A DNA stretch of 56,177 nt from Eubacteriales bacterium (GCA_045614425.1 JAZLCX010000131.1:1-56177); one strand, 5' to 3'. Positions 14,928-46,489 are shown, counted from the stretch's first letter. Notes: a model not told the origin generated them from the sequence alone. Numbers and translations: made by a program.

Positions 14928-14950
14928 CTCTATACTTCCTTTTTTGTAAA

Positions 14951-17073: not shown

Positions 17074-17108
17074 TCCGCCGCCGGCAGATAATCCGTTATT
17101 TTACACTA

Positions 17109-18194: not shown

Positions 18195-18214
18195 AATAAC
18201 CCTCATAGCATCAA

Positions 18215-26326: not shown

Positions 26327-26355
26327 TTGACAATTATTTACACGTATGTTATAAT
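26327..26355 (+). promoter_or_regulatory. Full-consensus sigma-A promoter TTGACA-17-TGtTATAAT
   Basis: ttgaca at 26327-26332, a 17-nt spacer ending in TGt, and tataat at 26350-26355. It is 80 nt upstream of the ATG at 26436. Confidence 0.75.
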
Positions 26356-26435
26356 TTATTCCGTACTAATGCCCGAGCTATGTCGTTTTTGCGGTGTGGC
26401 GGAGGTTAAAATGAATTTTTGGAGGAAACCAATTC

Positions 26436-29400
26436 ATGAAGAAGTCTTTGTTTCAGAAAGTGATCTGCTTTGTTCTTTCTGCAACAATCCTGCTCGGTGT
26501 CTTCGCGATTACCGCGAGCGCCGATTCCTCGTACGACAGAGGATATTCTTCAAACCGCGACACTGCGTCGTCGCTTGAAGATATGAAGGCTCTGGTAGGC
26601 ATTTCGTCATATCAGCAGTACCTCGCTGAGTACGGAGAGCCTTCCGTCGAGGAAGGAATGGAAACGGTTAAGGTCGATGTTACCAACCCGATTTCAAAGG
26701 AATATGCAGAGATTGTGGCGGATAGTTTGCTTTGCCAGAACGCGATGAAGGAAAATCCGGAGGACTGGTTCAGCTTCGGCAACAACCAGGAGGGCTCTCT
26801 CTACATTTCGGATAAGGGAGAGGTAACCTGGAATTTCCGTATTGATGTAGCAGGCTACTATTACATCAAGCTCGATTATTTCTCCTGCATAACCGCGGAG
26901 AGCAGTATCAGTACGATTGAGCGTAAGCTCTACATCGACGGTATGGTACCTTTTGATGAGGCGAGCTACATATCACTCAGTAAAACGTGGGGATACACCA
27001 ATATAATCACGGCTGATCCCGTTCCCACCGATGAGCCCGACGGAGCTACAACGGTGTACGAGCAGAAGAGTGACGGATACTACAAGATATCTACGGTAAT
27101 TAAAGACGGCATGAAGACCGTTACCACTTATGTTCTTTCGCAGGACATAAACGGAAACTCTATGGCACCGTCTATTACTCCATCTCCCTCGTGGAGCACC
27201 TATTACTGCCAGGACAAATCGGGTTATTATCAGGGGTACTTCCGTTTCTATCTTGCTTCCGGAAATCACCAGATAACTCTTGCCGCTGTGCGTGAGCCGG
27301 TAATCATCAAGGGAATAGAGCTCGTGCCTTATGACCCTGCACTTAATGCGATACCTTCTTACGAAAGCGTTAAGCAGATGTACGCCGATAAGGGATATCA
27401 GTCTGCGGACGGCGAGATTACGAACATTCAGGCGGAATTCCCGGATTTCGTTTCCGACTCTTCGGTTTATCCTTCTAACGATAAAACCTCTTCGGCAACC
27501 TATCCTTCCGTTTCGAAGGCGCAGCTTCATAACGTAATCGGAAAGAACAGCTACGACGCTCTCGGTCAGTGGGCAGCCTACAAGTTCTCGGTTGATAAGA
27601 CCGGACTTTACAAACTCAATATGCGTTATCAGCAAAGCACCTTGCAGGGTATGTATCTCTGCCGTACATTGAAGCTTCAGGGCGGAATGTACAGCGACGC
27701 TGACGGTATGCCTACGGTTCCGTTTATGGAAGCGTATGACACCCAGTTCCCCTATAGCAAGGACTGGCAGTCATCGTTCGCAGGCGACAGCAACGGAAAC
27801 ATTTTTGAGTTCTACTTCGAGGCGGGTGTCGAGTATACGCTCTACATTGAGTGCTCGCTCGGCTCGCTTAACAACCTTGTACAGTCGGTTGAGAACACTC
27901 TTAACGTGCTCAACGATTGCTACCTCAGAATATTGCAGCTTACGGGTTCAGCACCCGACGAATACCGTGATTATGGTTTCCTTGAAATAATGCCCGACGT
28001 TCTTATCAGCTTTGGTGAGCAGGCGATGGAGCTTGAGAGAATAAGACTTGAGCTCAAGAACCTTTGCGGAACGAACGGCTCACATATATCGACACTCGGT
28101 ACGGTTGCGCTTCTTCTTGACGACATGAGCAGAAACGATGGTTATAACATAGCATCGAACCTCTCTACTCTCAAGGCTTATCTCGGTACTCTCGGTACTT
28201 GGGTAAACGACTCTAAGAAGGGCAAGCTCATTCTCGATTCTATCAGCGTATGTCCTTCGGATACGTCGAGAAGCGATCTTCCCAGCGCAAAGGCGGGCTT
28301 CTTTAAGTCCATTTGGTTTGAAATTACATCCTTCTTCTACTCGTTCATAACCGATTACGACAAAATGGGTGTAACAGAAATCAACTCCGACAACGACGTT
28401 TCCATTGACGTTTGGCTTGCGATGGGACGTGACCAGTCGAATATTTGGCGTAGAATGGTGGACGCGCAAGACGGCTTTACCGACAGAACCGGTTACGCTG
28501 TAAACCTTAAGCTCGTTACAGCTTCGACGCTTCTGCCTTCGGTACTTGCAGGAAAGGGACCAGACGTTTACATGGGACTTCCGGCAGCGACGGTAATTAA
28601 CTACGCTATTCGTGATGCGATTCTTGGCGTCAGCGGAAACTACGGCGGCGAGAATTTCGATAACACAGCATTCAATACTACTATTTATACTTATAAGAGC
28701 GAAAACGGTATAGAAAAGACCACTGAGTATAAGGGCAAAGACGGACTCTCGTTCGTTTCTCTTCCTTATAAGCAGTATGCGGAGGAGAATTTCGTTCCCG
28801 CAGCGATTGATACGCTTACTCTTCTTGACGTGTCGTACGGATTGCCGCAGACGATGACCTTCTCTATGATGTTCTACCGTATGGACATTCTCGCCCAGCT
28901 CGGTCAGGAAGTGCCTGAGACCTGGGACGACCTTCTTTCGATGCTTCCCGTACTTCAGTCAAACAACATGCAGTTTGGTATAGATTACATCGGTATGCTT
29001 GACTACATGCTTTATCAGAAGGGCGGCGGAATGTGGAAGTATGACGAGGATCCCGCGCTTGTCGAGTATGCAGGTTCAAAGGTTGACCTTGACAGCGACG
29101 TAGCTCTTGAAGCCTTTGACTTTGTATGCCGACTTTACAGTGACTATTCCTTCCCGGTATCTTACGATGCGGCTAACCGCTTCAGAACCGGTGAAATGCC
29201 CGTACTCGTAGGTGGCTATACGGCGCTTTACAACCAGCTCGTCGTTTATGCTACCGAAATTGAGGGTAAGTGGGAATTCTGCCCGCTTCCCGGCTGTGCA
29301 ACTTACGACGATAAGGGCAACAGAACCTACATCAATTACGACTCCATTGCGAGCGTTGGTGCGAGTGTAATACTCTACGGTTGTGAAGGCGAACAGAGAA

Positions 29401-29765
29401 ATGCTGCTTGGGAATTTATGCAGTGGCACACCTCGGCTGACATTCAGTCCAGCTACGGCAACCAGATGGTTTCGATTCTCGGACCTTCCGCAAAGTATGA
29501 GACAGGTAACATCAATGCAATACAGGACCTTTCCTGGACTGCAAGTGAAAAGGATGCTATCCTCGACCAGATTGAGCACATGTCATCTATAGTTAACTAC
29601 CCTGGTTCTTACTATATCGCAAGATATATCAAGTTTGCATTCCTTGATGCCGTTAACGAAGGCGCAGACCCCGTTGACGCACTCAATGGATACATTGATG
29701 CAATTAACGCCGAGATAACCCGTAAACGCGAGGAATTCGGCCTTAAAACCGGCGACCCAAGTTAA
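26436..29765 (+). CDS. Giant secreted ABC solute-binding protein: signal peptide, two jelly-roll/CBM-like modules, a helical linker, and a C-terminal family-1 SBP domain
   Basis: 1109 aa. The N-terminus MKKSLFQKVICFVLSATILLGVFAITASA/DSS looks like an SPase I site, and I see no lipobox. Two similar modules are present (VTWNFRIDVAGYYYIKLDYFS...FYLASGNHQITLAAV..IKGIELVP and AAYKFSVDKTGLYKLNMRYQQ...FYFEAGVEYTLYIECS). From about residue 650 (nt ~28380) the sequence is SBP-like: IDVWLAMGRDQSNIWRRMV...LLPSVLAGKGPDVYMGL. Confidence 0.75.
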   Translation: MKKSLFQKVICFVLSATILLGVFAITASADSSYDRGYSSNRDTASSLEDMKALVGISSYQQYLAEYGEPSVEEGMETVKVDVTNPISKEYAEIVADSLLCQNAMKENPEDWFSFGNNQEGSLYISDKGEVTWNFRIDVAGYYYIKLDYFSCITAESSISTIERKLYIDGMVPFDEASYISLSKTWGYTNIITADPVPTDEPDGATTVYEQKSDGYYKISTVIKDGMKTVTTYVLSQDINGNSMAPSITPSPSWSTYYCQDKSGYYQGYFRFYLASGNHQITLAAVREPVIIKGIELVPYDPALNAIPSYESVKQMYADKGYQSADGEITNIQAEFPDFVSDSSVYPSNDKTSSATYPSVSKAQLHNVIGKNSYDALGQWAAYKFSVDKTGLYKLNMRYQQSTLQGMYLCRTLKLQGGMYSDADGMPTVPFMEAYDTQFPYSKDWQSSFAGDSNGNIFEFYFEAGVEYTLYIECSLGSLNNLVQSVENTLNVLNDCYLRILQLTGSAPDEYRDYGFLEIMPDVLISFGEQAMELERIRLELKNLCGTNGSHISTLGTVALLLDDMSRNDGYNIASNLSTLKAYLGTLGTWVNDSKKGKLILDSISVCPSDTSRSDLPSAKAGFFKSIWFEITSFFYSFITDYDKMGVTEINSDNDVSIDVWLAMGRDQSNIWRRMVDAQDGFTDRTGYAVNLKLVTASTLLPSVLAGKGPDVYMGLPAATVINYAIRDAILGVSGNYGGENFDNTAFNTTIYTYKSENGIEKTTEYKGKDGLSFVSLPYKQYAEENFVPAAIDTLTLLDVSYGLPQTMTFSMMFYRMDILAQLGQEVPETWDDLLSMLPVLQSNNMQFGIDYIGMLDYMLYQKGGGMWKYDEDPALVEYAGSKVDLDSDVALEAFDFVCRLYSDYSFPVSYDAANRFRTGEMPVLVGGYTALYNQLVVYATEIEGKWEFCPLPGCATYDDKGNRTYINYDSIASVGASVILYGCEGEQRNAAWEFMQWHTSADIQSSYGNQMVSILGPSAKYETGNINAIQDLSWTASEKDAILDQIEHMSSIVNYPGSYYIARYIKFAFLDAVNEGADPVDALNGYIDAINAEITRKREEFGLKTGDPS

Positions 29766-29790
29766 TAGCTACAATCAAGGAGATAAATAA

Positions 29791-30738
29791 ATGTCACAGA
29801 CAAATGCAAAAAAACGTCCGACACAACGCTCTGAAATGTCAAAGCTGCAGTGGACGTGGAAGGAGATGAAGAAGAATAAAACGGCGTACTTCATGGTCGC
29901 ACCGTTCTTTATCCTCTTCATCATCTTCACGGTCCTGCCGGTATTTCTTTCGATAATTTTGAGCCTTACGGACTTCAATATGCTGCAGATGCCTCATTGG
30001 AAGGGACTTTCCAACTATACAAGACTCTTCCTCGAGGACGATATATTTATTCTCGCGTGTCAGAATACTCTGATTTTCGCGGCAGTAACAGGTCCTGTAT
30101 CGTATCTGCTTTCGCTCTTGGTAGCATGGTTTATCAATGAGCTTCCTCCCAAAATCCGCGCGGTAGTAACGCTTGTCTTCTACTCGCCCTCGATTTCGGG
30201 TCAGGTTTACCTTATATGGAAGACACTCTTTTCTTCCGACTCACACGGTTGGGCAAACGCCACGCTAATGGATTTAGGTATAATAAATTCACCTATCCTG
30301 TGGTTTGAAAACGCCGACTACGTAATGCCGCTTTGTATTATAGTTGCACTGTGGACCTCGCTCGGTACGGCGTTCCTGTCCTTCATTGCCGGCTTCCAGA
30401 CCATTGACCGTTCAATGTATGAGGCGGCGGCGGTTGACGGAATTAAGAACCGCTGGCAGGAGCTCTGGTTTATCACGCTCCCGACCATGCGTCCTCAGAT
30501 GATGTTCGGTGCGGTGCTTGCAATCACGGGTTCGTTCGGATTCGGTGCGGTAGTTGACGCACTTTGCGGATTCCCGTCGGTTGACTACGCTGCGCATACG
30601 ATAATGCACCACCTAAGTGACTACGGCGGTGAGCGATATGAAATCGGTTATGCTTCGGCAATAGCCGTGGTGCTCTTCGTAATAATGTTCGTAAGTAACA
30701 TTGCGGTTAAGAAGGCACTTTCGAAGGTAGGTGAGTAG
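29791..30738 (+). CDS. ABC transporter permease, MalF/LplB-like (CUT1 type)
   Basis: 315 aa, polytopic, with the EAA loop YEAAAVDGIKNRWQELWFITLPTMRP. Confidence 0.9.
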   Translation: MSQTNAKKRPTQRSEMSKLQWTWKEMKKNKTAYFMVAPFFILFIIFTVLPVFLSIILSLTDFNMLQMPHWKGLSNYTRLFLEDDIFILACQNTLIFAAVTGPVSYLLSLLVAWFINELPPKIRAVVTLVFYSPSISGQVYLIWKTLFSSDSHGWANATLMDLGIINSPILWFENADYVMPLCIIVALWTSLGTAFLSFIAGFQTIDRSMYEAAAVDGIKNRWQELWFITLPTMRPQMMFGAVLAITGSFGFGAVVDALCGFPSVDYAAHTIMHHLSDYGGERYEIGYASAIAVVLFVIMFVSNIAVKKALSKVGE

Positions 30739-30740
30739 TA

Positions 30741-31622
30741 ATGGCGAAGTTTAAAAAATTAAGAACCAGGGGTCACCGAGTCGTACTTAACCGTTCGGCC
30801 GGAGGCGACACGGGTATAACCATCGTACTTACCATACTCGGAATATTTATGTTCCTTCCCATGTACTACGTTGTCATCCAGGCGTTCAAGCCCCTCGACG
30901 AACTTTTCATGTTCCCCCCTCGCTTCTACGTAATCAATCCTACGTTTGACAACTTTACCGATTTGTTTACCCTTCTCAGTGACTCGTGGGTACCTTTCTC
31001 AAGATACATATTCAACACGGTATTTATCACTCTTTGCGGTACTGTCGGTAACCTTATCTTCTCGTCTATGGCGGCATACGCTCTTGCGAAGCTTCGCTTC
31101 CCCGGAAGAAATGCTATCTTCCAGATCATAGTTATGTCGCTTATGTTCCACTCCACCGTTAACACCGTTACTCACTTTATCATTCTTTCGGCATTCGGTT
31201 GGGTTGATACATACCTTTCTATAATCGTTCCTTCTATGGCGTCCACTATGGGACTTTACCTCATGAAGCAGTTTATGGAATCCTCGGTTCCCGATACGGT
31301 ACTTGAATCCGCCCGTCTTGACGGCGCAAGCGAGTTCAGAACCTTCCTTATAATTGCTATGCCGATGGTTAAGCCTGCGTGGCTCACGCTTATAATCGAG
31401 TGCTTTAAGGGACTCTGGAACGCCGGAGCATCCATTTACATTCACTCGGAGGAGCTTAAGAGCTTTAACTACGCAATCAACCAGATCGTCACGGGTGGTA
31501 TTGCACGTTCCGGTGCCGGCGCGGCAGCAACAGTCGTAATGATGCTCGTTCCTATTCTGGTATTCGTATTTAACCAGAGCAAGATCATCGAGACGATGGG
31601 CTCGTCCGGTATGAAGGATTAA
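30741..31622 (+). CDS. ABC transporter permease, MalG/LplC-like (CUT1 type)
   Basis: 293 aa with the EAA loop LESARLDGASEFRTFLIIAMPMVKP. It starts 2 nt after the previous gene. Confidence 0.9.
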   Translation: MAKFKKLRTRGHRVVLNRSAGGDTGITIVLTILGIFMFLPMYYVVIQAFKPLDELFMFPPRFYVINPTFDNFTDLFTLLSDSWVPFSRYIFNTVFITLCGTVGNLIFSSMAAYALAKLRFPGRNAIFQIIVMSLMFHSTVNTVTHFIILSAFGWVDTYLSIIVPSMASTMGLYLMKQFMESSVPDTVLESARLDGASEFRTFLIIAMPMVKPAWLTLIIECFKGLWNAGASIYIHSEELKSFNYAINQIVTGGIARSGAGAAATVVMMLVPILVFVFNQSKIIETMGSSGMKD

Positions 31623-31632
31623 GGAGGCGCAA

Positions 31633-33831
31633 ATGAAAAAGATTACATCTATAATAATATTTGCGCTTGTCGCAGTGATGCTTGTCGGATTAGTTCCGGT
31701 TTCGGCATCTGATCCTTATGACACCTATACCTACTCGATTGACGGAACACCGCTTAAGTCGCCCACGGCGTACAGAGCGGAGAGCGTAGTTGATGCGCTT
31801 GATATGAAGCTTGACAGAGTTTCTTCCGTCACATCGCTTAAGAACCCCAACGATGTAGTTACCGATGATGACTCAAATGTTTATATCGCAGACACCGGTA
31901 ATAACAGAATTATCGTTCTTGATAAGTACTATACGGCAAAGGCTGAAATAAGCAGCTTTGTCGACGAGTTCGGCGTAACACAGACCTTTAATCAGCCGAG
32001 AGGACTTTTTGTAACTACAAATATAGATGCGAATACCGGAGTAAAGACCAGACTTATTTATATCTGCGATACTCAGAACTTCCGTCTCGTAGTTATGAAG
32101 GAGGCTGAAAATGGAGAGTTCGTCTACGAAAGAATCATCGAGAAGCCGGATACTCCGCTTCTTGCGACCGATGCATTTAAGCCTTCTGCAGTTGCAGTTG
32201 ACCTTTACGGCAGAATTTTCGTAGTTTCGGAATCCTGTTTCGAGGGCGTAGTCGTTATGTCGAGCGAGGGTCTGTTCACCGGATTTATCGGTGTTCAGAA
32301 GGTTACTTACTCGCTTATCGATATGATTTGGCGTAAGTTCCAGACAGCAGAGCAGAGAGCGTCTGCTGCGAAGAACCTTGCAAATCCTTATAACAATATC
32401 ACGGTTGATGAGAACGGATTCGTTTACGTTACCACCTCACCTTCCGACATTGAGGGAAAAACGCAGCAGTATTCTTCGATACGCTCTAAGAGTGCAGCGA
32501 CATCCCCTGTTAAAAAGCTTAATTCCGCAGGTAATGAAATCATGAAGCGTAACGGCTTCTTCGATCCCGGCGGAGAGGTAGATATCAAAGGCGGTGAATG
32601 GGTTTCCGTTATCACCGACGTAGCAGTTGGTCAGGAGGGATCATGGTCCATTCTTGATAAGTCCCGTTCGAGAGTTTTCACCTATGACCAGAACGGAAAC
32701 CTGCTTTTCGCATTTGGCGGTGTCGGCGAACAGAACGGTAACATTGAAAACGAAAAAGCGGTTTCGATTGCTTATCACAAAGTAAACGGTGTTTATTCCT
32801 TCCTTCTTCTCGATAACGATACGAGTGGAGCGAGAATTACCGTTTATACTCCGTCTCCGTACTACGATACTATCATAGCAGCACTTAAGAATCACAACGA
32901 GCACAACTACTCCGAGTCAATATCCTATTGGCAGGACGTTCTTACCCAGAACAATAACTTTGACCTTGCGTATATAGGTATAGGTAAGGCGCTGTTTAAT
33001 CAGGGTAAGTACGAGGAAGCACAGGCGATGCTCGAAAGTGCTTATGAAACCGACTATCACGATAAGGCGTTTGTCGAAATAAGAAAGGAAATCATCCAGA
33101 AATGGCTTCCTCTTATTCTGGTAGCGGCAATAGTTGTTCTCTGGCTCTTCTTTAAGTTCCTCGGATACGCTAAGAAGACCAACAAGGCGGTATCTCTTAA
33201 GGTTGGCCGTAAGACCTACTGGGAGGAGCTTATTTACGCATTCCACCTTGTATTCCACCCGTTTGACGGCTTCTGGGATTTGAAGCACGAGAAACGCGGT
33301 TCCGTAAGAGCTTCTCTTACGATAATGCTGATTACAGTAGCAGCATTCTTCTATCAGGCAATAGGTCAGGGATATTCATTCAACCCGAGAGGTGACTACT
33401 CAACGGTTATATTCCAGGTTCTTGCCGTAGCAGTTCCCGTAATACTCTGGTGCGTAGGCAACTGGTGTCTTACAACACTCTTCGACGGAGAAGGAAGCTT
33501 TAAGGATATCTTCATCGCAACGGGATATTCTCTTGCACCTCTTCCTCTCTTCGTGGTTATTTCTACTTTGCTTACAAACGTGATGACCGCTCAAGAGGGT
33601 ACAATGACCGGCTTTATCGTAACTATCGGTTACGTATGGGTTGGATTCCTTCTCTTCTTCGGTATGTCGGTTGTTCACGATTACACAATGGGCAAAAACT
33701 TCATAACCGTTATTGGAACAATAGTAGCAATGGCAGTAATTATGTTCGTTATAATTCTGTTCTCGTCGCTCGTTGTTAAGATGGTATCATTCATTATTGC
33801 GGTAAGCTCCGAGCTTGCCGGGCGAATTTAG
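31633..33831 (+). CDS. Membrane protein fusing an extracytoplasmic NHL-repeat beta-propeller, a TPR-like segment, and a C-terminal Yip1-like multi-TM domain
   Basis: 732 aa. It has an N-terminal signal/anchor (IIIFALVAVMLVGLVPVSA) and NHL-type repeats (DDSNVYIADTGNNRIIVLDK, LIYICDTQNFRLVVMK, GRIFVVSES, GSWSILDKSRSRVFTYDQNGNLLFAFGG). A TPR-like segment follows (IGIGKALFNQGKYEEAQAMLESAYE). About six hydrophobic helices run from nt ~33085 onward. Confidence 0.7.
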   Translation: MKKITSIIIFALVAVMLVGLVPVSASDPYDTYTYSIDGTPLKSPTAYRAESVVDALDMKLDRVSSVTSLKNPNDVVTDDDSNVYIADTGNNRIIVLDKYYTAKAEISSFVDEFGVTQTFNQPRGLFVTTNIDANTGVKTRLIYICDTQNFRLVVMKEAENGEFVYERIIEKPDTPLLATDAFKPSAVAVDLYGRIFVVSESCFEGVVVMSSEGLFTGFIGVQKVTYSLIDMIWRKFQTAEQRASAAKNLANPYNNITVDENGFVYVTTSPSDIEGKTQQYSSIRSKSAATSPVKKLNSAGNEIMKRNGFFDPGGEVDIKGGEWVSVITDVAVGQEGSWSILDKSRSRVFTYDQNGNLLFAFGGVGEQNGNIENEKAVSIAYHKVNGVYSFLLLDNDTSGARITVYTPSPYYDTIIAALKNHNEHNYSESISYWQDVLTQNNNFDLAYIGIGKALFNQGKYEEAQAMLESAYETDYHDKAFVEIRKEIIQKWLPLILVAAIVVLWLFFKFLGYAKKTNKAVSLKVGRKTYWEELIYAFHLVFHPFDGFWDLKHEKRGSVRASLTIMLITVAAFFYQAIGQGYSFNPRGDYSTVIFQVLAVAVPVILWCVGNWCLTTLFDGEGSFKDIFIATGYSLAPLPLFVVISTLLTNVMTAQEGTMTGFIVTIGYVWVGFLLFFGMSVVHDYTMGKNFITVIGTIVAMAVIMFVIILFSSLVVKMVSFIIAVSSELAGRI

Positions 33832-33850
33832 AAGCAGGAGGTAATGTAAA

Positions 33851-36800
33851 ATGAATATAAAGAGAATATTATCAACTGCTTTGGTTGTTGTCATGCTGTT
33901 TACGACGCTTATTGCTGCGGTTCCGTTTGCTGCGTCTGCGGCATACTCACCGTCAAGCGCGACGGCAAACGCTAACATTCCTGAAGGATATGAAGAAGCA
34001 AATCTTAACCAGGCAGATCTTGAAGCTTATCTTGCGGAATACGTTGAGTATGATTTTGCGAGTGCCGGCGAGATGCTTAATTATGAGCTCGAGCGCGGAT
34101 ACCTCTACTATACCAACTCTTCGGGTATGCAGTACACGATGTTTGTCAATAAGTATACGGGCTTTATTTATTACGTAAATAACGTTACCGGTCAGATACT
34201 TACTTCTAACCCGATAAATCCTAAACAGGCTCCCGGTGTAGATGACAAACAGACTCTTATGAGCCAGATAGTTATAAATTTTGCCGAGGCTGAAAACTCT
34301 GCTAAGGCTAAAACTTATACCAGCTTCAGATGGGCTGCTATGCGTTCGCAGATTTCGGTAAGTCCCATATCCGGCGGATTCAGAGTTAACTATACTCTTG
34401 GTGATACCGCTGCGAGATTCCTTCTTCCCGGATGGGTTAAGGCTGACGACTTCGAGGAATCTATACTCAAACCCATGTTTGAGCAGTTCGCTCTCAAAAT
34501 GGAGGAGTATTGCTCCGGAAAATATCCGAACGTTAACTTCAGCTTCTTTGATAACCCGAGATACGCTGCGTACGAATACGAATGTATTTCCTATACTGCA
34601 GCGAGAAAATACTTCTCGGAGATGCAGACTATATATCAGGATGTACTTAAGAGAACTTCTCCTGAATATAAGCAGCTCAACGCTTTCAGAACCGATATAA
34701 ACAAGATAATGCAGGCGTATTCTGCTAAGATTCCTGCAAAGTATATAGACAAGAGCAGTTACAAGGATACTCTTGAAACTATGTACAAGGATTATCCCGT
34801 AACCAAGGATGGCGAGGCTATCTACGTTTATTCAGGCTCTAAGCTTCCCGAGGCAAAGCGTCCGCTTGCAAACATAATCAAGGAATATTGCCCTGATTAC
34901 ACCTTCTCTCTTATGTATAAGCAGGAGAAGGAGTGCGGATACGAGGATGATTCGGCACAGCAGCCCGTATTCAGATGTGCTCTTGAATACACATTCAACA
35001 GCGACAATACGCTCTCGGTACGTCTTCCCGCGAGCTCAATCACTTTCGATGAAACCGTATATATCCTTAACGATATAATTCCTCTTCAGTATTTCGGCGG
35101 TGCCGACATGACAAATGACGGATACGTATTCTATCCCGACGGAAGCGGAACTGTTATCAACTTCTCGGATTTCTACGGCGATGCGAAGACTGTAGGTATA
35201 GTTCTTGAAGCGCCTATGTACGGTCTTGATTACTGTTATTCTAAGATTAACAGTATAGCCGGTATATCGCACAGAGAGCAGGTAACAATGCCGGTTTACG
35301 GCGTTGTTAACGAGGTTAAGGCAAACCCTGCAACAACTCTTGTAAACCCCGAAATAAAAACCGTGACAAACGGATATTTCGCAATAATTGAAGAGGGCTC
35401 GGCTCTTGCAAACCTCATGGTTATGTCCGGCGGTAGCTCCCACAGATTTATAGGAGCATACGCATATTACACGCCTTACCCCTCAGATACGTATGACCTT
35501 TCCGAAACTCTTTCGGTTGGTTCGCTCGGTATATACAAAATCGTTTCCGATTCAAAATATACGGGTTCTTACGTAACCAGATACGTAATGCTTGCCGACG
35601 ATGAGCTTGGTGTGAAGTATTACGGTGAGAATGGATACTATTCTTCGGATTACGTCGGCATGGCAACTTGCTACCGTGATTATCTGAAGGAAAACGGTAC
35701 GCTCAAGGCAATTGAGAACTTTAATGAGGATCTTCCTCTTTATATTGAGGTTCTCGGTGCAATGGATATAACTGCTAAATTCCTTTCTTTCCCGATTACA
35801 AAGAATGTCGCTCTTACTACCTTTAATGACGTTGCTACAATTTACGACGAGCTTTCAAAGTGCGAGGAATTAGTAGTACAGAAGGTTGAAGAGTATAAGC
35901 AACTCGCTGAAGCGGAAGAGGATGCGGTTCAGAAATATCAGTATGAAAAGCAGGCTGAAAGATACGCCGAGCTTATTGGAAGCATACAGAATATTAAAAA
36001 CATAAACTTCAAGCTTACAGGCTTTGCTAACGGCGGATTGAAGTCCACGTATCCCGTTAAGCTTAAATGGGTTAAGGCGTGCGGCGGAAAATCCGGTTTT
36101 AAGAATCTCTTAGCGAAAGCTGATGCTGTAAACGCAAGCGGCGAAGGCGCGTTTAACATCTATCCCGACTTTGATTTTATGTACATAAACAAGACGGGAA
36201 CATTTGACGGAATATCCGTAAAGGATACAGCCTCAATGCTCGTTGACAACCGTTATGCGTCCATGCAGACCTACAATTCCGTAATTCAGGAGTTTGAAAC
36301 TGTTAGCTCTCTTGTTGTAAATCCCGGCGTTTTAGAGTCGCTTTACAATAAATTTAACAGCAAGTATTCCTCATACGGAAACAAGAATATCTCTGTATCC
36401 TCGATGGGTGTTACACTTAACTCAAACTTCGACAAGAGCGATGCTATAAACCGTGAAGATGCTCTCGGAATGGTTGAAAGCGTTCTTGATACGATGGTTA
36501 ACACTAACGGATACAACGTGATGACCGATACAGGAAACGTATATGCTCTCAAATATGCGTCTCATATTCTTAACGCTCCCGTTGATTCGAGCCATCACAG
36601 ATACACGTCATATACCGTACCCTTTATGGGAATGGTTCTTCACAGCTACGTAAATTACACCGGTGAGCCTATCAACTATTCAGGTTCTCCCGCGTACGAC
36701 AGACTTCGTGCAATAGAGAGCGGTGCTGCACTTTATTACATCGTCTGCTTCAGAAACACCTCGTATATGAAGAACGATGCGGATCTCAACAAGTACTACG

Positions 36801-37768
36801 GTGTTGACTATCACAACTGGTTTGACCTTATCGCAGAGAACTATAAGATTCTTAACGATTATATTGGCGACCTTCAGAAATACGAGATCGTTGACCATGA
36901 CATTCTCAAGGCTGAGCGCGAGGTTGCTGAAGATGAGCTTGCAACTAAGTTCATCGCAATCGAAGAGGAACTTCTTGTTCTTCTCGAAAAACAGATTATT
37001 AATACTGTAGACGAAGCTCTTGCAGGTCTTAAGGGCAACAGTCAGAACTATGACAAGAGAATAAAGATTGTAATATCGAGAGATAGCATAATCGATGCAT
37101 TTGCCGGTATTCTTAATATCTCTAAGGATAGATTTGATGTTCGTCCTTCTGCAAATGCACTTTCATTCAGTGAGAGAATCGATGCTCTTGCCGATGAATT
37201 TGAGGCTGAATACAAAGGCGCTTCGGATGCAGCAAATACCGTTACGGTAAACTTTGAATTTTCTCTTGCAAAGATGCTGACAATGTCGCTTGACGATCAG
37301 CTCTCAGACTTGGCTGGCAAGTACAGCGCTTATGACCCCGATATTGTAAGACTTAACGTTAACAGAGCGGCAATCGTTTCGAGATTTGCAAAAATACTCG
37401 ATAAGGACGTTTCTGAAATCGAAACTTTGATCGGTGCGGAAATCGACGCAGTTATTGCTAAGTACACAAGTGTTTATGACGGTTACCATGAAGACGGTGA
37501 ATACGACCCCGCACTCTCTCTTGTGATTGAGTACAGCGCGTTCGTATACATTGCAGACTCTTACGTTACTTATTCCTTGGCTCTTGACGGCAAGGATTAT
37601 ATCGCAACCGACTTTACGGTTGATAACGGAAACGTAACCATGGTTACTTATAAGTGCGGTGATAGCGTAGTAAGATTTATTCTCAACTACAACAACTACA
37701 AAGTAACCGTAAGACTCGGCGAAACAGAATCCTATACGCTTGACGCGTACGGATTTGTAAGAATCTAA
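33851..37768 (+). CDS. 1305-aa secreted/anchored protein of unknown function (possibly DUF5696-like)
   Basis: The N-terminal signal/anchor is ILSTALVVVMLFTTLIAAVPFAASAA. The rest has mixed predicted beta/alpha content (YVFYPDGSGTVINF, MPVYGVV, LYIEVLGAMD, FKLTGFANGG, IYPDFDFMY) and a coiled-coil insert (EEYKQLAEAEEDAVQKYQYEKQAERYAEL). I recognise no catalytic motif by eye. The DUF5696 label comes from memory of similar gene neighbourhoods and is unverified. Confidence 0.55.
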   Translation: MNIKRILSTALVVVMLFTTLIAAVPFAASAAYSPSSATANANIPEGYEEANLNQADLEAYLAEYVEYDFASAGEMLNYELERGYLYYTNSSGMQYTMFVNKYTGFIYYVNNVTGQILTSNPINPKQAPGVDDKQTLMSQIVINFAEAENSAKAKTYTSFRWAAMRSQISVSPISGGFRVNYTLGDTAARFLLPGWVKADDFEESILKPMFEQFALKMEEYCSGKYPNVNFSFFDNPRYAAYEYECISYTAARKYFSEMQTIYQDVLKRTSPEYKQLNAFRTDINKIMQAYSAKIPAKYIDKSSYKDTLETMYKDYPVTKDGEAIYVYSGSKLPEAKRPLANIIKEYCPDYTFSLMYKQEKECGYEDDSAQQPVFRCALEYTFNSDNTLSVRLPASSITFDETVYILNDIIPLQYFGGADMTNDGYVFYPDGSGTVINFSDFYGDAKTVGIVLEAPMYGLDYCYSKINSIAGISHREQVTMPVYGVVNEVKANPATTLVNPEIKTVTNGYFAIIEEGSALANLMVMSGGSSHRFIGAYAYYTPYPSDTYDLSETLSVGSLGIYKIVSDSKYTGSYVTRYVMLADDELGVKYYGENGYYSSDYVGMATCYRDYLKENGTLKAIENFNEDLPLYIEVLGAMDITAKFLSFPITKNVALTTFNDVATIYDELSKCEELVVQKVEEYKQLAEAEEDAVQKYQYEKQAERYAELIGSIQNIKNINFKLTGFANGGLKSTYPVKLKWVKACGGKSGFKNLLAKADAVNASGEGAFNIYPDFDFMYINKTGTFDGISVKDTASMLVDNRYASMQTYNSVIQEFETVSSLVVNPGVLESLYNKFNSKYSSYGNKNISVSSMGVTLNSNFDKSDAINREDALGMVESVLDTMVNTNGYNVMTDTGNVYALKYASHILNAPVDSSHHRYTSYTVPFMGMVLHSYVNYTGEPINYSGSPAYDRLRAIESGAALYYIVCFRNTSYMKNDADLNKYYGVDYHNWFDLIAENYKILNDYIGDLQKYEIVDHDILKAEREVAEDELATKFIAIEEELLVLLEKQIINTVDEALAGLKGNSQNYDKRIKIVISRDSIIDAFAGILNISKDRFDVRPSANALSFSERIDALADEFEAEYKGASDAANTVTVNFEFSLAKMLTMSLDDQLSDLAGKYSAYDPDIVRLNVNRAAIVSRFAKILDKDVSEIETLIGAEIDAVIAKYTSVYDGYHEDGEYDPALSLVIEYSAFVYIADSYVTYSLALDGKDYIATDFTVDNGNVTMVTYKCGDSVVRFILNYNNYKVTVRLGETESYTLDAYGFVRI

Positions 37769-37782
37769 GATAGGAGGAAAAT

Positions 37783-38736
37783 ATGATGGAAAAATCGCTT
37801 AAAATTCCAAAAAGACGCAAAGCGTCGCTTTCTGCGCGCAAAGCTCGAAAAGGATATTTCTTTGTCGCTCCGTTTATCATTGGTATAGTTCTCATTTATA
37901 TACCTATCCTCCTTGACTCGATTTGGTTCAGCTTTTACGATACCGCCTTTTATACCGATGAGGTAGCAGGCGAGCTCGTTAAGTATTACAAGTCAGCCGG
38001 ACTTCACTACTACAGAACCGCTATCGGTGATACTAATTTCATAACGGCGCTTCTTGCAGGTTTGCAGCAGCTTATATTTGAAATTCCCGCAGTTGTTATT
38101 TTCTCACTCTTCATTGCGGTTGTTTTGAACCAAAAGATGCTTGGTAGAGCAGTGTTCCGTGCGATATTCTTCGTTCCGGTTATTATTTCTACCGGATTTA
38201 TGGAGCAGCTTCTTGCAAACAACAGCGCAGCGGACTATATGGAAGGCGGTGTAAACACCGGTGAACAGCAGGACGCTCAATCTTCGAACGATATTATTTC
38301 GGTTCTCGACGTAGAAAAGCTCTTCGGTTCGATGAAGGTTGGTACGGAGCTTGTCGGTTACGTTGTTGCTATCGTTAACAACGTGTACGATTACATAAAC
38401 TACTCCGGTGTACAGATGCTTATATTCCTTGCAGGTCTTCAGTCGATATCTCCTTCAATTTATGAAGCGAGCCAGATAGAAGGCGCAACGGGATGGGAAA
38501 CATTCTGGAAAATAACCTTCCCGATGATTTCTCCGATGATACTCGTAAACGCAGTATATTCGGCAATTAATGCGTTCACACGCAGTACGAACCCGACTAT
38601 GGTCCATATAACCAATACTGTTGACGACTCTCTCAGAGCTGCAACGTCTTGGATTTATTTCGGCATAGTTATGCTGATAGTAGCAGTTGTTGCGTTGATT
38701 ATGTCAACCTTCATCTTCTATCAGCGAAGGGATTAA
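37783..38736 (+). CDS. ABC transporter permease, MalF-like (second pair)
   Basis: 317 aa with the EAA loop YEASQIEGATGWETFWKITFPMISP and a hydrophilic periplasmic insert (NSAADYMEGGVNTGEQQDAQSSND). Confidence 0.88.
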   Translation: MMEKSLKIPKRRKASLSARKARKGYFFVAPFIIGIVLIYIPILLDSIWFSFYDTAFYTDEVAGELVKYYKSAGLHYYRTAIGDTNFITALLAGLQQLIFEIPAVVIFSLFIAVVLNQKMLGRAVFRAIFFVPVIISTGFMEQLLANNSAADYMEGGVNTGEQQDAQSSNDIISVLDVEKLFGSMKVGTELVGYVVAIVNNVYDYINYSGVQMLIFLAGLQSISPSIYEASQIEGATGWETFWKITFPMISPMILVNAVYSAINAFTRSTNPTMVHITNTVDDSLRAATSWIYFGIVMLIVAVVALIMSTFIFYQRRD

Positions 38737-38748
38737 GGAGGTAGCAAT

Positions 38749-39810
38749 ATGGATTCTAAAACAGTTGTAAGAAAAGAGACAAAGAATAGAATTCGCGTTG
38801 ACTACGAGGGTAAGTTGTCCTTTAAAGAAAGGATTGCGAAAAAGCTCAAAGCGTCTAACACATGGATAAAGGCTGTTGTAAACGTATGCCGATTTATCCT
38901 TATGCTTGGTGTTTCCTACGTTATTCTTTATCCCTTCATTGCTAACATTGCCGGTTCGTTTATGACTATAGACGATATCGTATCTCCTACCGTTGCCCTT
39001 ATCCCTACGAAGCCTACCTTGGAATCGTATAAGATAATCGCGGTAGAGAACCACTACCTTGAAGCCTTGACAAACACGCTTTTCCTCTCGCTTGCATGTG
39101 CTATTATTCAGACGTTTATAGCATGTCTTGTAGGCTACGGACTTGCAAAGTTCAAGTTCAAGGGTAACGGCGCGGTAATGGTAGTTGTTGTTATTACAAT
39201 GATTATCCCGCACGTAGCGCTCAGTTCCGCTATGAAGTCTCAGTTTATAAACTTTGACCTTTTCCACGTATTTGCCTGGAACTATGACGGACCGATAAAG
39301 ATGATTTTCGGTGATACACTTCACCTTAACAGCACGTTCTGGCCGCTCATACTTCTCTCAGCTACAGGTCTTGCCTTTAAGAACGGACTCTATATTTACC
39401 TTATGCGTCAGTTCTTCAAGGGCGTTCCCGATGAGCTTGAAGAGTCTGCGTACGTTGACGGTGCAAACACCTTCCGTACCTTCTTCCAGATTATAATTCC
39501 GCTGTCTGTTCCGATGATGATTACAATATTCCTGTTCTCGTTCTCGTGGCAGTGGTCTGACGTATTCTATACGAGAATATGCTTCCCGGCAGCCGATGCA
39601 ACAACGAATGCAACCTACCTTATGCCCGACGTTGTAAAGGTTCCCGTAGCAGTGGAAAAGATTTATTCAACTCACCCGGGTTGGGGACTTTACAGCCCTA
39701 TGCTCAAGAATACAGCCGCAATGATGGCAATTGCGCCTCTGATTGTTCTTTACCTCTTCTGCCAGAAGTTCTTGGTACAGGGTATTGAGCGTTCCGGTCT
39801 TGTCGGCTAA
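38749..39810 (+). CDS. ABC transporter permease, MalG-like (second pair)
   Basis: 353 aa with the EAA loop EESAYVDGANTFRTFFQIIIPLSVP. Confidence 0.88.
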   Translation: MDSKTVVRKETKNRIRVDYEGKLSFKERIAKKLKASNTWIKAVVNVCRFILMLGVSYVILYPFIANIAGSFMTIDDIVSPTVALIPTKPTLESYKIIAVENHYLEALTNTLFLSLACAIIQTFIACLVGYGLAKFKFKGNGAVMVVVVITMIIPHVALSSAMKSQFINFDLFHVFAWNYDGPIKMIFGDTLHLNSTFWPLILLSATGLAFKNGLYIYLMRQFFKGVPDELEESAYVDGANTFRTFFQIIIPLSVPMMITIFLFSFSWQWSDVFYTRICFPAADATTNATYLMPDVVKVPVAVEKIYSTHPGWGLYSPMLKNTAAMMAIAPLIVLYLFCQKFLVQGIERSGLVG

Positions 39811-39851
39811 TCCCCGGGCTTCCGGATTTGAGCATAACCTAATAAAAAAAC

Positions 39852-39888
39852 AAAGAGGTATTGTGTTGTTTAACACAATACCTCTTTT
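39852..39888 (+). terminator. Rho-independent terminator closing the large operon
   Basis: A perfect 16-bp stem, aaagaggtattgtgtt / aacacaatacctcttt, with a 4-nt loop (gttt). The 3' arm ends in a T-run. Confidence 0.8.
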
Positions 39889-41039: not shown

Positions 41040-42173
41040 TCAGCGCTTCGCTAAATATTTTCTCATATCCACAGCGCAGGCGAGAAGAATTATAAGTCCC
41101 TTTATTATATAAAGCATATTCTGGTCGACCGAAAGGAAATTGAGTCCTACAAAAATTATCTGCAAAAGCAAAACGCCTATCACGATGCCGCCGATTTTTC
41201 CCGTGCCGCCGACGAATGAAACTCCTCCTATAACGCAGGCGGCAATTGCGTCGCTCTCATAGTTTAGTCCGGTGTAGGAGGCTATTGAGCCTATTCGCGC
41301 ACCCTCTATAAATCCGGTTATACCGTACATAATTCCGGCAAGCATAAATACAAGAAGTATGGTTCTGAATACGTTTACACCCGAAACGAGAGCCGCATCC
41401 TCGTTTGAACCAACAGCAAACATATTTTTGCCAAACACGGTTTTGTTCCATATAAACCACATAATGACCGTGATTATGACGGCGTAAAGCACGTATTTCG
41501 GCACCGCTATTCCGTTAATCGAAAACAAAGGACCGCTTATGAAGCTCAGATATGATGCGTCAAGTCCCGAAAGCGTTTGACCGCCGTTATCGCCAATCTG
41601 TAAATAGAGAAGAACAAGACCGAAGAGTATCAGCTGGGTGGAAAGGGTCACTATAAACGGATGAAGCTTAAATTTGGCTACGAAAAATCCGTTTACAAGG
41701 CCTATAAGCGCGCCCGCTGCCATAACTGCAAGGAGAACCAGCGGAATCGGAACAGTTCCGATTCCCGGAAACATCTTGTTGGCGTAAGAGGCGGATTGCA
41801 AAAGAGATGCGGCAATGCAGGCTGTAAGACCTACTGCTCGTCCTGCCGAAATATCCGTGCCCGAAAGAACTATCGCGCCGCCAATACCAAGGGCGATAGG
41901 CAGTCTTGCGGCTGTTAAAGAAATAATATTTATTATTGAAGCGGTTGAAACGAATCTCGGCTCCATAATCGCAATCACAATAATCGCCGTTATGATTATT
42001 ATATACATTGCGTTTTTTAGGATAAAATCCGACACCGTGTTGAGTTTTTCTCTCGGTGACAGCTGCTTGAATTCGGAAATCCGCCGTCCTACACCTTGGG
42101 GCAGGGATTTGATTTTCATCGTAGTTCTTGTAAATATGGAATCGTTTCTGTTATTAGAGTTGTTTTCGGGCAT
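41040..42173 (-). CDS. mglC: Sugar ABC transporter permease, MglC-like (CUT2 type)
   Basis: The track ORF extends to 42269 and overlaps mglA. I prefer the ATG at 42173 (MPENNSNNRND...). The protein is polytopic and has GGTGKIGG and GTDISAGR-type motifs. Confidence 0.85.
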   Translation of the reverse strand: MPENNSNNRNDSIFTRTTMKIKSLPQGVGRRISEFKQLSPREKLNTVSDFILKNAMYIIIITAIIVIAIMEPRFVSTASIINIISLTAARLPIALGIGGAIVLSGTDISAGRAVGLTACIAASLLQSASYANKMFPGIGTVPIPLVLLAVMAAGALIGLVNGFFVAKFKLHPFIVTLSTQLILFGLVLLYLQIGDNGGQTLSGLDASYLSFISGPLFSINGIAVPKYVLYAVIITVIMWFIWNKTVFGKNMFAVGSNEDAALVSGVNVFRTILLVFMLAGIMYGITGFIEGARIGSIASYTGLNYESDAIAACVIGGVSFVGGTGKIGGIVIGVLLLQIIFVGLNFLSVDQNMLYIIKGLIILLACAVDMRKYLAKR

Positions 42174-42195
42174 AATCCCTTTGTGTTCCTTTCTT

Positions 42196-43713
42196 TTAGG
42201 CAAATCTTGTGGCAAGGTCCATAATTTTTTCTTGCGACAGCTCCTTGCCGCTGACCTCGCCCGAAACACGTCCGCCCGACATAACTATGATTCGGTCGCA
42301 GACTCCTATAAGCTCCGGCATTTCGGAGGAAACCAAAATTATCCCTTTACCTTTTTCTGCAAGCTCGATTATAAGCCTGTAAATCTCGTATTTTGCGCCA
42401 ACGTCAATTCCTCGCGTGGGCTCGTCGAGAAGCAGAACCTTCGGCTCGGTAAGAAGCCATCTTCCAAGTATAACCTTCTGCTGATTTCCACCCGAAAGAG
42501 ATGCGATTCTCGTGCTTTTTGACGGTGTTTTTATCTTCATTGCCTCAATGCACCACTCGGTAGCAAGGTTCATCTTTTCGGTTGATAGAATGGGCCCCGT
42601 GCGGTATTTTTTCAGACTTGACACGGTTGCGTTCTCGGTTATCGAGAGGATTCCGAAAATTCCGCTCTCGCGCCTCTCCTCAGTGAGAAGGGCAAAGCCC
42701 TCTTTTATCGCCTCGCGGGGATTATTGTTTTCTATCCTCTTGCCCTCGAGAAAAATCTCTCCGCCCTCGCGCTCTCTTCTGCCAAAAAGAGTTTCAATAA
42801 GCTCTGTACGTCCCGAGCCGTCAAGCCCCGCCACACCGAGTATCTCACCGCGCCTCAATTCAAGGTCGGCAGATCTCAGTCGGGAATATTTGCCGGAGAT
42901 TCCTTCCACTTTAAGCATAACATCCCCGGGGGTGTTGTGTTTTTTCGGATAACGCTCTTCAAGCTCACGACCGACCATAAGCTTTATTATTTCATCGGTA
43001 GTGATGTCGGATGCCGCCTTGGTAGCAACGTGCTTGCCGTCGCGCATAACCGTTACCTCGTCGGATATGCGAAGTATTTCTTCCATCTTGTGAGAGATGT
43101 ATATAATTGCGCAGCCACGCGCCTTTAAGGTCTCGATTATTTTAAAAAGTCTTTCTGCCTCAGCCTCGTTCAATGATGAGGTGGGCTCGTCAAATACTAT
43201 GACCTTTGCGTTATACGAGACAGCTTTTGCAATCTCTACCATCTGTCTTTTTGAGACCGATAGGGTATTCATCTTTGCCCTCGGGCTTGTGTCTATTCCG
43301 AGACCGTCGAATATTTCCTTTGTCATGGAGTACATTTTTTTCTCGCTGGTAAGAGGAATAAATTTCGCGACACGGGGGAATCTGCCAAGCCACATATTAT
43401 CCATTACGGTGAGCTTCAGTGCTTGGTTAAGCTCTTGATGCACCATAGCAACTCCGTTTGCAAGAGCATCGCGCGCACCCGAAAATTCAACCTCTTTACC
43501 TTCAAGAAATATCCTGCCGCTATCGGCGCGGTATACACCGAAAAGGCACTTCATAAGCGTTGATTTCCCCGCGCCGTTTTCTCCCATCAAGGCGTGTACT
43601 TTGCCGCCGTATACCGTGAGAGAAACCCCGTCAAGAGCTTTCACCCCCGGAAAGCTCTTGCTTATATTTTCCATTTTTATAAGGGGAATGTTATTATTTG
43701 TTGTCATTTTCAC
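42196..43713 (-). CDS. mglA: Sugar ABC transporter ATP-binding protein with duplicated ABC domains (MglA-like)
   Basis: 505 aa with Walker A GENGAGKST, signatures LSVSKRQ and LSGGNQQK, and Walker B motifs VIVFDEPTS and LLLDEPTRG. Confidence 0.92.
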   Translation of the reverse strand: MKMTTNNNIPLIKMENISKSFPGVKALDGVSLTVYGGKVHALMGENGAGKSTLMKCLFGVYRADSGRIFLEGKEVEFSGARDALANGVAMVHQELNQALKLTVMDNMWLGRFPRVAKFIPLTSEKKMYSMTKEIFDGLGIDTSPRAKMNTLSVSKRQMVEIAKAVSYNAKVIVFDEPTSSLNEAEAERLFKIIETLKARGCAIIYISHKMEEILRISDEVTVMRDGKHVATKAASDITTDEIIKLMVGRELEERYPKKHNTPGDVMLKVEGISGKYSRLRSADLELRRGEILGVAGLDGSGRTELIETLFGRREREGGEIFLEGKRIENNNPREAIKEGFALLTEERRESGIFGILSITENATVSSLKKYRTGPILSTEKMNLATEWCIEAMKIKTPSKSTRIASLSGGNQQKVILGRWLLTEPKVLLLDEPTRGIDVGAKYEIYRLIIELAEKGKGIILVSSEMPELIGVCDRIIVMSGGRVSGEVSGKELSQEKIMDLATRFA

Positions 43714-44761: not shown

Positions 44762-44839
44762 AAAATCACCGCCTTTTATACGTTTAGCGCTATTTTTTGC
44801 AAAAATCAGCAATATATTCATGAAAAAGCAAAATGCCAC

Positions 44840-44868
44840 TTGAAAAAAAGACTCGGGGGTGATAAAAT
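44840..44868 (+). promoter_or_regulatory. Putative promoter TTGAAA-17-TGaTAAAAT
   Basis: Hexamers at 44840-44845 and 44863-44868 with an extended TG, 37 nt upstream of the ATG at 44905. Confidence 0.5.
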
Positions 44869-44904
44869 ATATAATAAATAAAAACAAAGCGAAAGGAGAT
44901 AAAT

Positions 44905-46487: not shown

Positions 46488-46489
46488 TT

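Follow-up and report, generated by a model that had tools for sequence, protein, structure and literature searches.

What is encoded by a single transcription unit that joins two pairs of ATP-binding cassette (ABC) importer permeases to a giant solute-binding protein (SBP), a membrane-anchored NHL-TPR-Yip1 protein and a very large secreted protein of the DUF5696 family? The question is posed by a seven-gene operon at 26327-39888 in a stretch of DNA from Eubacteriales bacterium (GCA_045614425.1, JAZLCX010000131.1:1-56177). The whole stretch, 56,177 nucleotides long, is called the window here. The permeases are named P1 to P4 in gene order.

We lean towards reading this operon as the stand-alone version of an ancient cassette with seven components, a generic core for oligosaccharide import with two translocators and a surface assembly. 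This reading is preferred because the four permeases carry the BPD_transp_1 domain and EAA loops, the giant SBP has an oligosaccharide-SBP fold, ugpC lies beside the cassette of one other genome, and importers of this kind share ATPases (PMC7658222). The transport chemistry is familiar. What is new is a widespread and fixed seven-part architecture that is uncharacterised and in which two parts have no assigned function. Our literature search returned nothing that mentions DUF5696 or PF18952, nothing that links Yip1 or NHL proteins to sugar ABC importers, and no functional study of the gene cluster, in line with an earlier note on this DNA, made from the sequence alone, which knew of no functional characterisation.

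Occurrence and neighbours of the cassette

When GTDB was scanned with a degenerate pattern, one genome for each species, more than 564 genomes proved to encode a DUF5696 relative, and the best 80, from different assemblies, were examined. These loci are from gut metagenome-assembled genomes (MAGs) labelled Eubacteriales, Clostridia, Oscillospiraceae or "Ruminococcus sp.", and we refer to them as the window's lineage. The order giant SBP, P1, P2, NHL-Yip1, DUF5696, P3, P4, on one strand, was found in 80/80 loci. All seven genes were recovered in 62 of them, and each incomplete cassette stops at a contig or locus edge. DUF5696 identity in these loci was 34-65%. The surroundings are conserved within the lineage as well: mnmA lies upstream in 40 loci, and no LacI-type regulator was found within 10 kb in any of the 80. 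In the window's lineage, the cassette stands alone among housekeeping genes.

One of the loci, L026 (CAVEOF010000005.1), is labelled Coriobacteriaceae (Actinomycetota), and its cassette and promoter region are near-identical to those of two Eubacteriales/Clostridia MAGs, L068 and L025. Mis-binning or contamination is a more likely source of this label than lateral transfer.

Outside the lineage, a tblastn search of plasmids gave two replicons that carry the cassette, Butyrivibrio fibrisolvens pNP243 and a megaplasmid of Paenibacillus cellulosilyticus. The RefSeq labels in both read extracellular SBP (977 and 986 aa), two permeases, NHL/YIP1, DUF5696, and two permeases; the neighbourhood of "YIP1 family" and "DUF5696" beside sugar ABC permeases that the earlier note had mentioned is present in both records. 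Each of the seven window proteins had its best match in its positional counterpart in these two loci. The SBP was 31% and 26% identical to the Butyrivibrio and Paenibacillus proteins, respectively, and the ranges over the two were 27-38% for Yip1 and 23-27% for DUF5696.

Homologues of the Butyrivibrio protein led to 11 further loci, in a Roseburia sp. MAG, an Acetatifactor-labelled cluster, Lachnospiraceae MAGs, Paenibacillus alkalitolerans, P. catalpae, Cohnella nanjingensis, and metagenome contigs, which brings the total outside the lineage to 13. The gene order was the same in 13/13, with tight or overlapping junctions (-22 to +58 nt); one-to-one orthology was demonstrated for two of the loci. 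Co-occurrence beyond this genome, on which the idea of a system had been made to depend, was borne out by all 80 lineage loci and all 13 from Lachnospiraceae and Paenibacillaceae. Gene order is strict over three Firmicute lineages, one of them in another class (Bacilli), which suggests that the seven-gene unit predates the split of these groups or moved between them en bloc.

The genes beside the cassette in these 13 loci differ. A glycoside hydrolase (GH) of family GH43 is accompanied by a histidine kinase, the enzyme being a lipoprotein (L083 and L093), by LacI (L094), or by GH35 and GH42 (L087), and a 369-aa cytoplasmic GH43 occurs with a histidine kinase and a response regulator (L081). 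Other cassettes adjoin two GH53 and LacI (L084), GH113 and LacI (L085), GH26 (L086 and L089), GH26 and GH113 (L092), or GH16, GH3, and AraC (L090); no GH lies beside those of L082 and L088. A regulator was present in 10/13 loci, and none was found within 10 kb in L082, L089, or L087, the last having only a cut TetR gene at its edge. Because the small adjacent GH53, GH26, GH113, GH35, GH42, and GH3 proteins have no signal peptide, the arrangement implies that in these loci oligosaccharides would be cleaved in the cytoplasm after import. The large GH53 enzyme, the large GH43 enzymes, and the GH16 enzyme near the cassette are lipoproteins. The whole follows the classic Gram-positive scheme, in which a surface endo-enzyme acts first, ABC importers take up the oligosaccharides, and cleavage is completed in the cytoplasm.

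Since different loci have different neighbouring enzymes, the cassette does not serve a single polymer. We therefore regard it as a substrate-agnostic generic module that is reused for different glycans, with the window's lineage holding the stand-alone form. The earlier note had proposed a surface machine that captures or processes a polymeric substrate and feeds two translocators. The location of the cassette within polysaccharide-utilisation loci elsewhere strengthens this proposal, and the varying neighbours speak against a single polymer. The note had also placed the proteins of unassigned function where an SBP normally sits. No second SBP was found within 10 kb in the 80 lineage loci, as that idea supposes, but in 12/13 loci outside the lineage the cassette has ordinary lipoprotein SBPs (455-631 aa) beside it, which weakens the idea.

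Fibre in animal and human guts is degraded to a large extent by Firmicutes. To our knowledge, no conserved uptake core has been recognised in their polysaccharide-utilisation loci, unlike those of Bacteroidota, and the cassette is a candidate for one. A single architecture occurs in Oscillospiraceae-like gut Clostridia, Lachnospiraceae, and Paenibacillaceae, with enzymes that vary over mannan-, galactan-, arabinan/xylan-, and β-glucan-type activities. SusC/SusD of Bacteroidota offer an analogy only: there, too, a conserved uptake module stands beside changing glycan-specific enzymes and regulators, but there is no homology, and energisation, membrane architecture, and components all differ.

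The cassettes of Lachnospiraceae and Paenibacillaceae resemble the Gram-positive polysaccharide-utilisation loci (gpPULs) of Roseburia and Eubacterium rectale in the company of GHs, regulators, and SBPs (PMC5320581). The gpPUL tables of Sheridan et al. (2016) give "2 x ABC" loci together with hypothetical genes, and the cassette is not described there as a unit (PMC5320581). The operon of the window is itself not a gpPUL, as it has no regulator and no recognised carbohydrate-active enzyme (CAZyme), DUF5696 being GH-like by fold alone.

Components of the cassette

PF00528 (BPD_transp_1) was matched above cutoff by all four permeases, and EAA coupling motifs were found in P1, P2, P3, and P4. Both pairs thus have the features of CUT1 transmembrane subunits, and by its permeases and SBP the operon belongs to the CUT1 importers. 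P2 is the best-conserved gene of the cassette (mean pairwise identity 0.86); P3 has a hydrophilic extracytoplasmic loop of ~85 residues (~146-230), and P4 is longer than usual, at 353 aa. Identity to the Butyrivibrio and Paenibacillus counterparts was 56% and 42% for P1, 57% and 37% for P2, 39% and 31% for P3, and 38% and 29% for P4. The two pairs are old, distinct lineages, because each permease best matches its own positional counterpart and P1 is merely ~22-26% identical to P3 of Butyrivibrio and Paenibacillus.

A MalK/MsmX-type nucleotide-binding subunit was not found in the operon or in the window open reading frames (ORFs) scanned, the rest of the genome being outside the search. The absence of an ATPase from the operon, to which attention had been drawn earlier, is real but ordinary, because the EAA loops are intact in all four permeases and it is common for Firmicute CUT1 importers to be served in trans by a shared MsmX-type ATPase whose gene lies elsewhere (PMC7658222). 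In the cassette of P. cellulosilyticus, ugpC is directly upstream of the giant SBP gene (L082, 3336-4445). This is the sole cassette examined that has an adjacent MsmX/UgpC-type ATPase, a natural candidate for the energising subunit.

The characterised CUT1 importers with a shared MsmX-type ATPase, such as AraNPQ and GanSPQ of B. subtilis (PMC7658222, PMC5730181), are like the cassette in their MalF/MalG-type permeases with EAA motifs, their SBP_bac_1/8 proteins, and an ATPase that is often encoded elsewhere. The cassette differs from them in having two permease pairs and an SBP of ~1000-1100 aa that has ~650 extra N-terminal residues and no lipid anchor. NHL-Yip1 and DUF5696 are obligatory in the cassette and are not known from any characterised CUT1 system.

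The product of gene 1 is a CUT1-type binding protein, the single one for two permease pairs. SBP_bac_8 was matched at residues 741-1007 (45 bits, Pfam), and the signal peptide is of the non-lipoprotein type. The AlphaFold model (pLDDT 76.9, pTM 0.70) consists of β-sandwiches at ~120-300 and 330-475, a helical bundle at 476-593, a Phe-rich helix at ~620-641, and a CUT1-type oligosaccharide-binding domain in the C-terminal part (~655-1100). Foldseek matched the SBP fold to binding proteins for sophoro-oligosaccharide, maltodextrin (MalE3), cycloisomalto-oligosaccharide, and acarbose (GacH), with target TM-scores up to 0.80. For the N-terminal β-sandwiches no structural match was obtained, the whole-model Foldseek search being dominated by the SBP domain. 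They may resemble carbohydrate-binding modules (CBMs), for which the one line of backing is sub-threshold CBM_35 and Golvesin_C matches in 7/8 orthologues. The whole architecture could be aligned over 10 divergent orthologues.

The Phe-rich segment of gene 1 (28296-28358, residues ~621-641) is an amphipathic helix, GFFKSIWFEITSFFYSFITDY, between the helical bundle and the SBP domain. Its F..SF..DY pattern is kept in divergent orthologues, and model confidence is low there. It may be a docking or membrane-contact element.

The gene 4 product has, in order, a signal peptide of the non-lipobox type, an extracellular NHL β-propeller, a TPR-like motif, a transmembrane helix (492-510), and a Yip1 domain (538-706). 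Yip1 (PF04893) scored 58.7 bits against a cutoff of 28.6, with five hydrophobic segments after the anchor helix, and the NHL part had sequence matches in the PDB to NHL propellers, e.g., Pizza and PknD. In 11/13 loci outside the lineage the NHL-TPR-transmembrane part and Yip1 are encoded separately; the two genes overlap by 10-22 nt except in L088, where a 4-nt gap divides them. The two parts are fused in the window and in P. cellulosilyticus, and the break point is just after the anchoring transmembrane helix.

We know of only one bacterial Yip1 protein with a described role, YknW. In B. subtilis, this Yip1-family protein modulates assembly of the ABC transporter YknXYZ (PMC4887032). The YknWXYZ system is similar to the cassette in that it combines genes for an ABC transporter and a Yip1-domain membrane protein; it differs in its transporter, YknYZ, a MacB-type exporter that has a membrane-fusion protein, whereas the cassette encodes type I importers and its Yip1 domain goes with an NHL propeller, so that we can only infer a shared role. 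A YknW-like accessory role for gene 4 is thus a lead, and its basis here is the fixed gene linkage.

Gene 5 encodes a DUF5696 protein (PF18952; E = 2.6e-115, 386.7 bits vs. a cutoff of 25.6). The family is large; the number of clusters (50% identity) that a profile search assigned to it was at least 4384 for E ≤ 1e-3 and 1648 for E ≤ 1e-30. A non-lipobox signal peptide and an N-terminal domain are followed by a β-sandwich and a partly modelled (β/α)8-like barrel (~340-1030), a lineage-specific helical insertion, and a C-terminal β domain. The AlphaFold model of residues 30-1150 had a pLDDT of 74.8, with barrel segments below 50. In Foldseek, the β-sandwich and barrel matched the GH129 α-N-acetylgalactosaminidase NagBb (E = 5e-13, probability 1.00; 5wzp, 5wzq, 5wzr, 5wzn), GH31 (5aee, E = 6e-7), a GH36-type enzyme (E = 6e-3), and GH66 dextranase (0.06). 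As modelled, the DUF5696 core is GH129/GH31-like by fold alone. The earlier statement that the operon has no recognisable glycoside hydrolase stands for sequence methods and has to be qualified for this predicted fold.

DUF5696 differs from GH129, GH31, and GH36 enzymes in having no detectable sequence or profile similarity to them, in being secreted and much larger, and in being locked to permease genes. With five divergent members as queries, Pfam returned DUF5696 alone at E up to 10, and NCBIfam gave no match for the protein. A 24-sequence cross-lineage profile aligned by hhalign with E. coli YihQ, a GH31 enzyme among the Foldseek matches, had a probability of 0.1. For want of sequence similarity, membership of GH129 or GH31 was rejected.

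About 15 polar residues are nearly invariant in 180 DUF5696 sequences from three lineages, among them D430, D460, E514, R577, Y601, Y608, R868, N896, Y898, N942, E956, K974, W990, and H1016. Because of these residues and the GH-like fold, DUF5696 would appear to have a conserved functional site. The nearest folds, enzymes of the GH129/GH31 type, act on α-linked sugars. For this reason DUF5696, if catalytic, might trim side chains and not the β-linked backbones that are cut by the neighbouring enzymes, which is speculation by analogy.

The protein has 1200-1400 aa in the window's lineage versus ~850 aa elsewhere. Compared with the ~850-aa proteins of Lachnospiraceae and Paenibacillus, it is extended by ~35 coiled-coil-like residues that follow the first barrel strand (35858-35965), and a helical insertion of ~230 residues (~36940-37600) lies before the shared C-terminal β domain.

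Proposed mechanism and alternatives

In the mechanism that we propose, a shared MsmX/UgpC-type ATPase encoded elsewhere would power both translocators. The β-sandwiches of the giant SBP, if CBM-like, would capture glycan chains or long oligosaccharides, and its SBP domain would deliver them to P1P2. The NHL-TPR-Yip1 protein would be a membrane scaffold that keeps the two unlipidated large proteins beside the permeases, and DUF5696 would bind or trim incoming glycan close to P3P4. Specificity would be set by the fast-evolving surface domains, plus neighbouring enzymes where present, the cassette itself being substrate-agnostic. In the window's lineage, it would serve core nutrient uptake from a strong, probably constitutive promoter.

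Several results weigh against this proposal. No enzyme, regulator, or second CUT1 SBP lies near the cassette in the lineage. The GH-like assignment of DUF5696 comes from one medium-confidence model, with TM-scores of 0.27 (query) and 0.46-0.50 (target), and neither phmmer nor a 46-sequence profile found a GH among all PDB sequences, the matches being spurious (PPR, nanobody). The sole acids that are invariant across the family are D430, D460, E514, and E956, and no family-wide carboxylate pair (nucleophile and acid/base) was found in the barrel among the 180 sequences. Position 859 is Asp in 97/97 Lachnospiraceae-type and 22/23 Paenibacillaceae-type sequences, but Asn in 59/60 sequences of the window's lineage, including that of the window (codon 36425-36427). 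Because no carboxylate pair is kept and Asp859 is replaced by Asn, catalysis may have been lost or altered in this lineage. A conserved site in DUF5696 beside enzymes that vary is also hard to square with a linkage-specific enzyme.

The distance correlations ("mirror-tree") add a further point, although the test is confounded by shared phylogeny and rate and was treated as weak. They pair P1 with P2 (0.44) and P3 with P4 (0.375), but they tie DUF5696 to the giant SBP (0.52) and not to P3P4 (partial r = 0.14), which lends no support to the exact division into two modules made in the earlier note.

Of the alternatives, the most credible, though unlikely, is that two independent CUT1 importers are merely co-transcribed with unrelated surface proteins, with DUF5696 as a free extracellular glycosidase, NHL-Yip1 in a separate role, and no complex. 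Every part does have an ordinary counterpart (SBP, permeases, GH-like fold), the lipoprotein SBPs that adjoin the cassette outside the lineage could serve P3P4, and "2 x ABC" loci already pass without comment in the gpPUL tables (PMC5320581). However, independent parts would be expected to separate, and the seven-gene set and its order are invariant in 93 loci of Clostridia and Bacilli, with overlapping junctions. A lipid anchor is lacking in the giant SBP, the NHL protein, and DUF5696, whose signal peptides are of the non-lipobox type, unlike those of the ordinary SBPs beside them, and P3P4 are an orthologous lineage of their own that is always tied to DUF5696.

Next is a stronger form of the assembly that we propose, which we hold to be doubtful: all seven proteins would form one supercomplex, in which the Yip1-anchored propeller joins the two translocators and DUF5696 docks on the second as an enzyme that passes on its product or as a non-SBP receptor. 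If true, this would be a Firmicute counterpart of the SusCD "utilisome" of Bacteroidota and the first case of a type I ABC importer supplied in another way than by a classical binding protein.

It is improbable that DUF5696 is a non-catalytic receptor, a pseudo-glycosidase that replaces an SBP, docks on P3P4, and feeds them glycans directly. Its gene is always immediately upstream of P3P4, often with 1-8-nt overlaps, and the long loop of P3, the missing carboxylate pair, D859N, and the lack of a second SBP in the lineage would all fit such a role. Against it, the lipoprotein SBPs outside the lineage adjoin P4 or lie upstream of the cassette, type I importers are known to be gated by SBP-fold proteins only, and DUF5696 correlates weakly with P3 and P4.

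Very improbable is a role in remodelling or recycling the cell's own envelope glycopolymers (wall polysaccharide, exopolysaccharide) in place of nutrient uptake. Such a role would account for constitutive expression and a core-genome position in the window's lineage. Although the housekeeping neighbours, the strong conserved promoter, and the lack of a catabolic enzyme or regulator nearby in the window's lineage agree with it, and conserved DUF5696 residues beside variable enzymes would fit a common self-derived ligand, elsewhere the cassette lies in catabolic loci with cytoplasmic GH26, GH53, GH113, GH35, GH42, and GH3 and with LacI/AraC, typical of dietary glycan use, and the SBP domain resembles those of oligosaccharide importers.

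Solving the roles of NHL-Yip1 and DUF5696 would assign function to thousands of "hypothetical" genes, would test whether ABC importers form larger surface machines, and would provide a marker from which glycan use by uncultured Firmicutes of the gut could be predicted.

Expression signals and flanking genes

The operon consists of seven + strand ORFs in series, separated by gaps of 25, 2, 10, 19, 14, and 12 nt, with a promoter and a hairpin at its ends (Table 1). ORFs and gaps were exactly as first described.

Table 1. Features of the seven-gene operon in the window
Feature	Position	Strand	Basis
Promoter, sigma-70-type, extended -10	26327-26355	+	TTGACA-17 nt-TATAAT, TG upstream; 12/12
Gene 1, giant secreted solute-binding protein, 1109 aa	26436-29765	+	Pfam SBP_bac_8, AlphaFold, Foldseek
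Gene 2, permease P1, MalF/UgpA-like, 315 aa	29791-30738	+	BPD_transp_1; EAA loop at residue ~211
Gene 3, permease P2, MalG/UgpE-like, 293 aa	30741-31622	+	BPD_transp_1; EAA loop at residue ~189
Gene 4, NHL-TPR-Yip1 protein, 732 aa	31633-33831	+	Pfam Yip1, NHL, TPR; transmembrane scan
Gene 5, DUF5696 protein, 1305 aa	33851-37768	+	Pfam PF18952, AlphaFold, Foldseek
Gene 6, permease P3, MalF-like, 317 aa	37783-38736	+	BPD_transp_1; EAA loop at residue ~228
Gene 7, permease P4, MalG-like, 353 aa	38749-39810	+	BPD_transp_1; EAA loop at residue ~232
Intrinsic-terminator hairpin	39852-39887		16-bp perfect stem, 4-nt loop, A-run upstream, short T-run downstream

The promoter was the sole 12/12 match in the 16 kb scanned, which agrees with the single full-consensus promoter first reported. 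The 29 other promoter-like sites scored 9-10/12, and their number equals the shuffle expectation. An extended -10 promoter (TTGAC[AT]-N14-TGnTATAAT) precedes the first gene in 57/61 orthologous loci. The promoter is more than a chance match, because it is kept in these loci amid sequence that is not conserved, and its conservation argues for selection for strong expression.

The hairpin, described before as a terminator with a perfect 16-bp stem, has a folding energy of -21.5 kcal/mol (z = -6.35), which was equalled by 0/200 shuffles. On the + strand, the stem is followed by only ~4 U and preceded by an A-run, and the terminator scan placed it on the - strand. The hairpin thus looks like a terminator that would act in both directions. 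Inside the operon, 15 terminator-like sites were found versus 15.2 expected, and none stands out.

A riboswitch or leader RNA as a hidden regulator was ruled out, with no Rfam match in the window and a 5′ leader no more stable than its shuffles (z = -0.53). A GC hairpin with a T-run, terminator-like, was present in the 5′ leader of 11/54 orthologous operons, against 0.6 expected from shuffles (L037, L045, L047, L048, L050, L058, L064, L067, L070, L072, and L074), ~10-45 nt past the promoter. It could be an attenuator in one sub-lineage.

The Pfam scan of the operon revealed no ATPase, regulator, or recognised CAZyme, and NCBIfam found no CAZyme family among its proteins. No MsmX-type ATPase or regulator was found among the flanking and more distant window ORFs scanned; the absence of a regulator from the operon had been noted earlier. 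The upstream flank is composed of housekeeping genes: holB, metG, a shikimate/aromatic operon, trkA, and iscS-nifU-mnmA. The aromatic genes form a compact operon on the - strand (12029-18206) for 5-enolpyruvylshikimate-3-phosphate synthase, a fused shikimate dehydrogenase-kinase, chorismate synthase, dehydroquinate synthase, and chorismate mutase-prephenate dehydratase.

An EamA transporter and a BMP-type ABC importer are encoded in the downstream flank. Farther on, a 340-aa ORF on the + strand (46451-47473) matched no Pfam family at E up to 1e-3. The BMP/ribose-type importer (41040-44938, - strand) comprises a Peripla_BP_4 SBP, a double ABC_tran ATPase, and a BPD_transp_2 permease. Its ORFs 41040-42269 and 42196-43713 overlap by 74 nt, which means that one start was probably mis-called. 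In 21-34 of the lineage loci, the cassette is likewise followed by an importer of this type.

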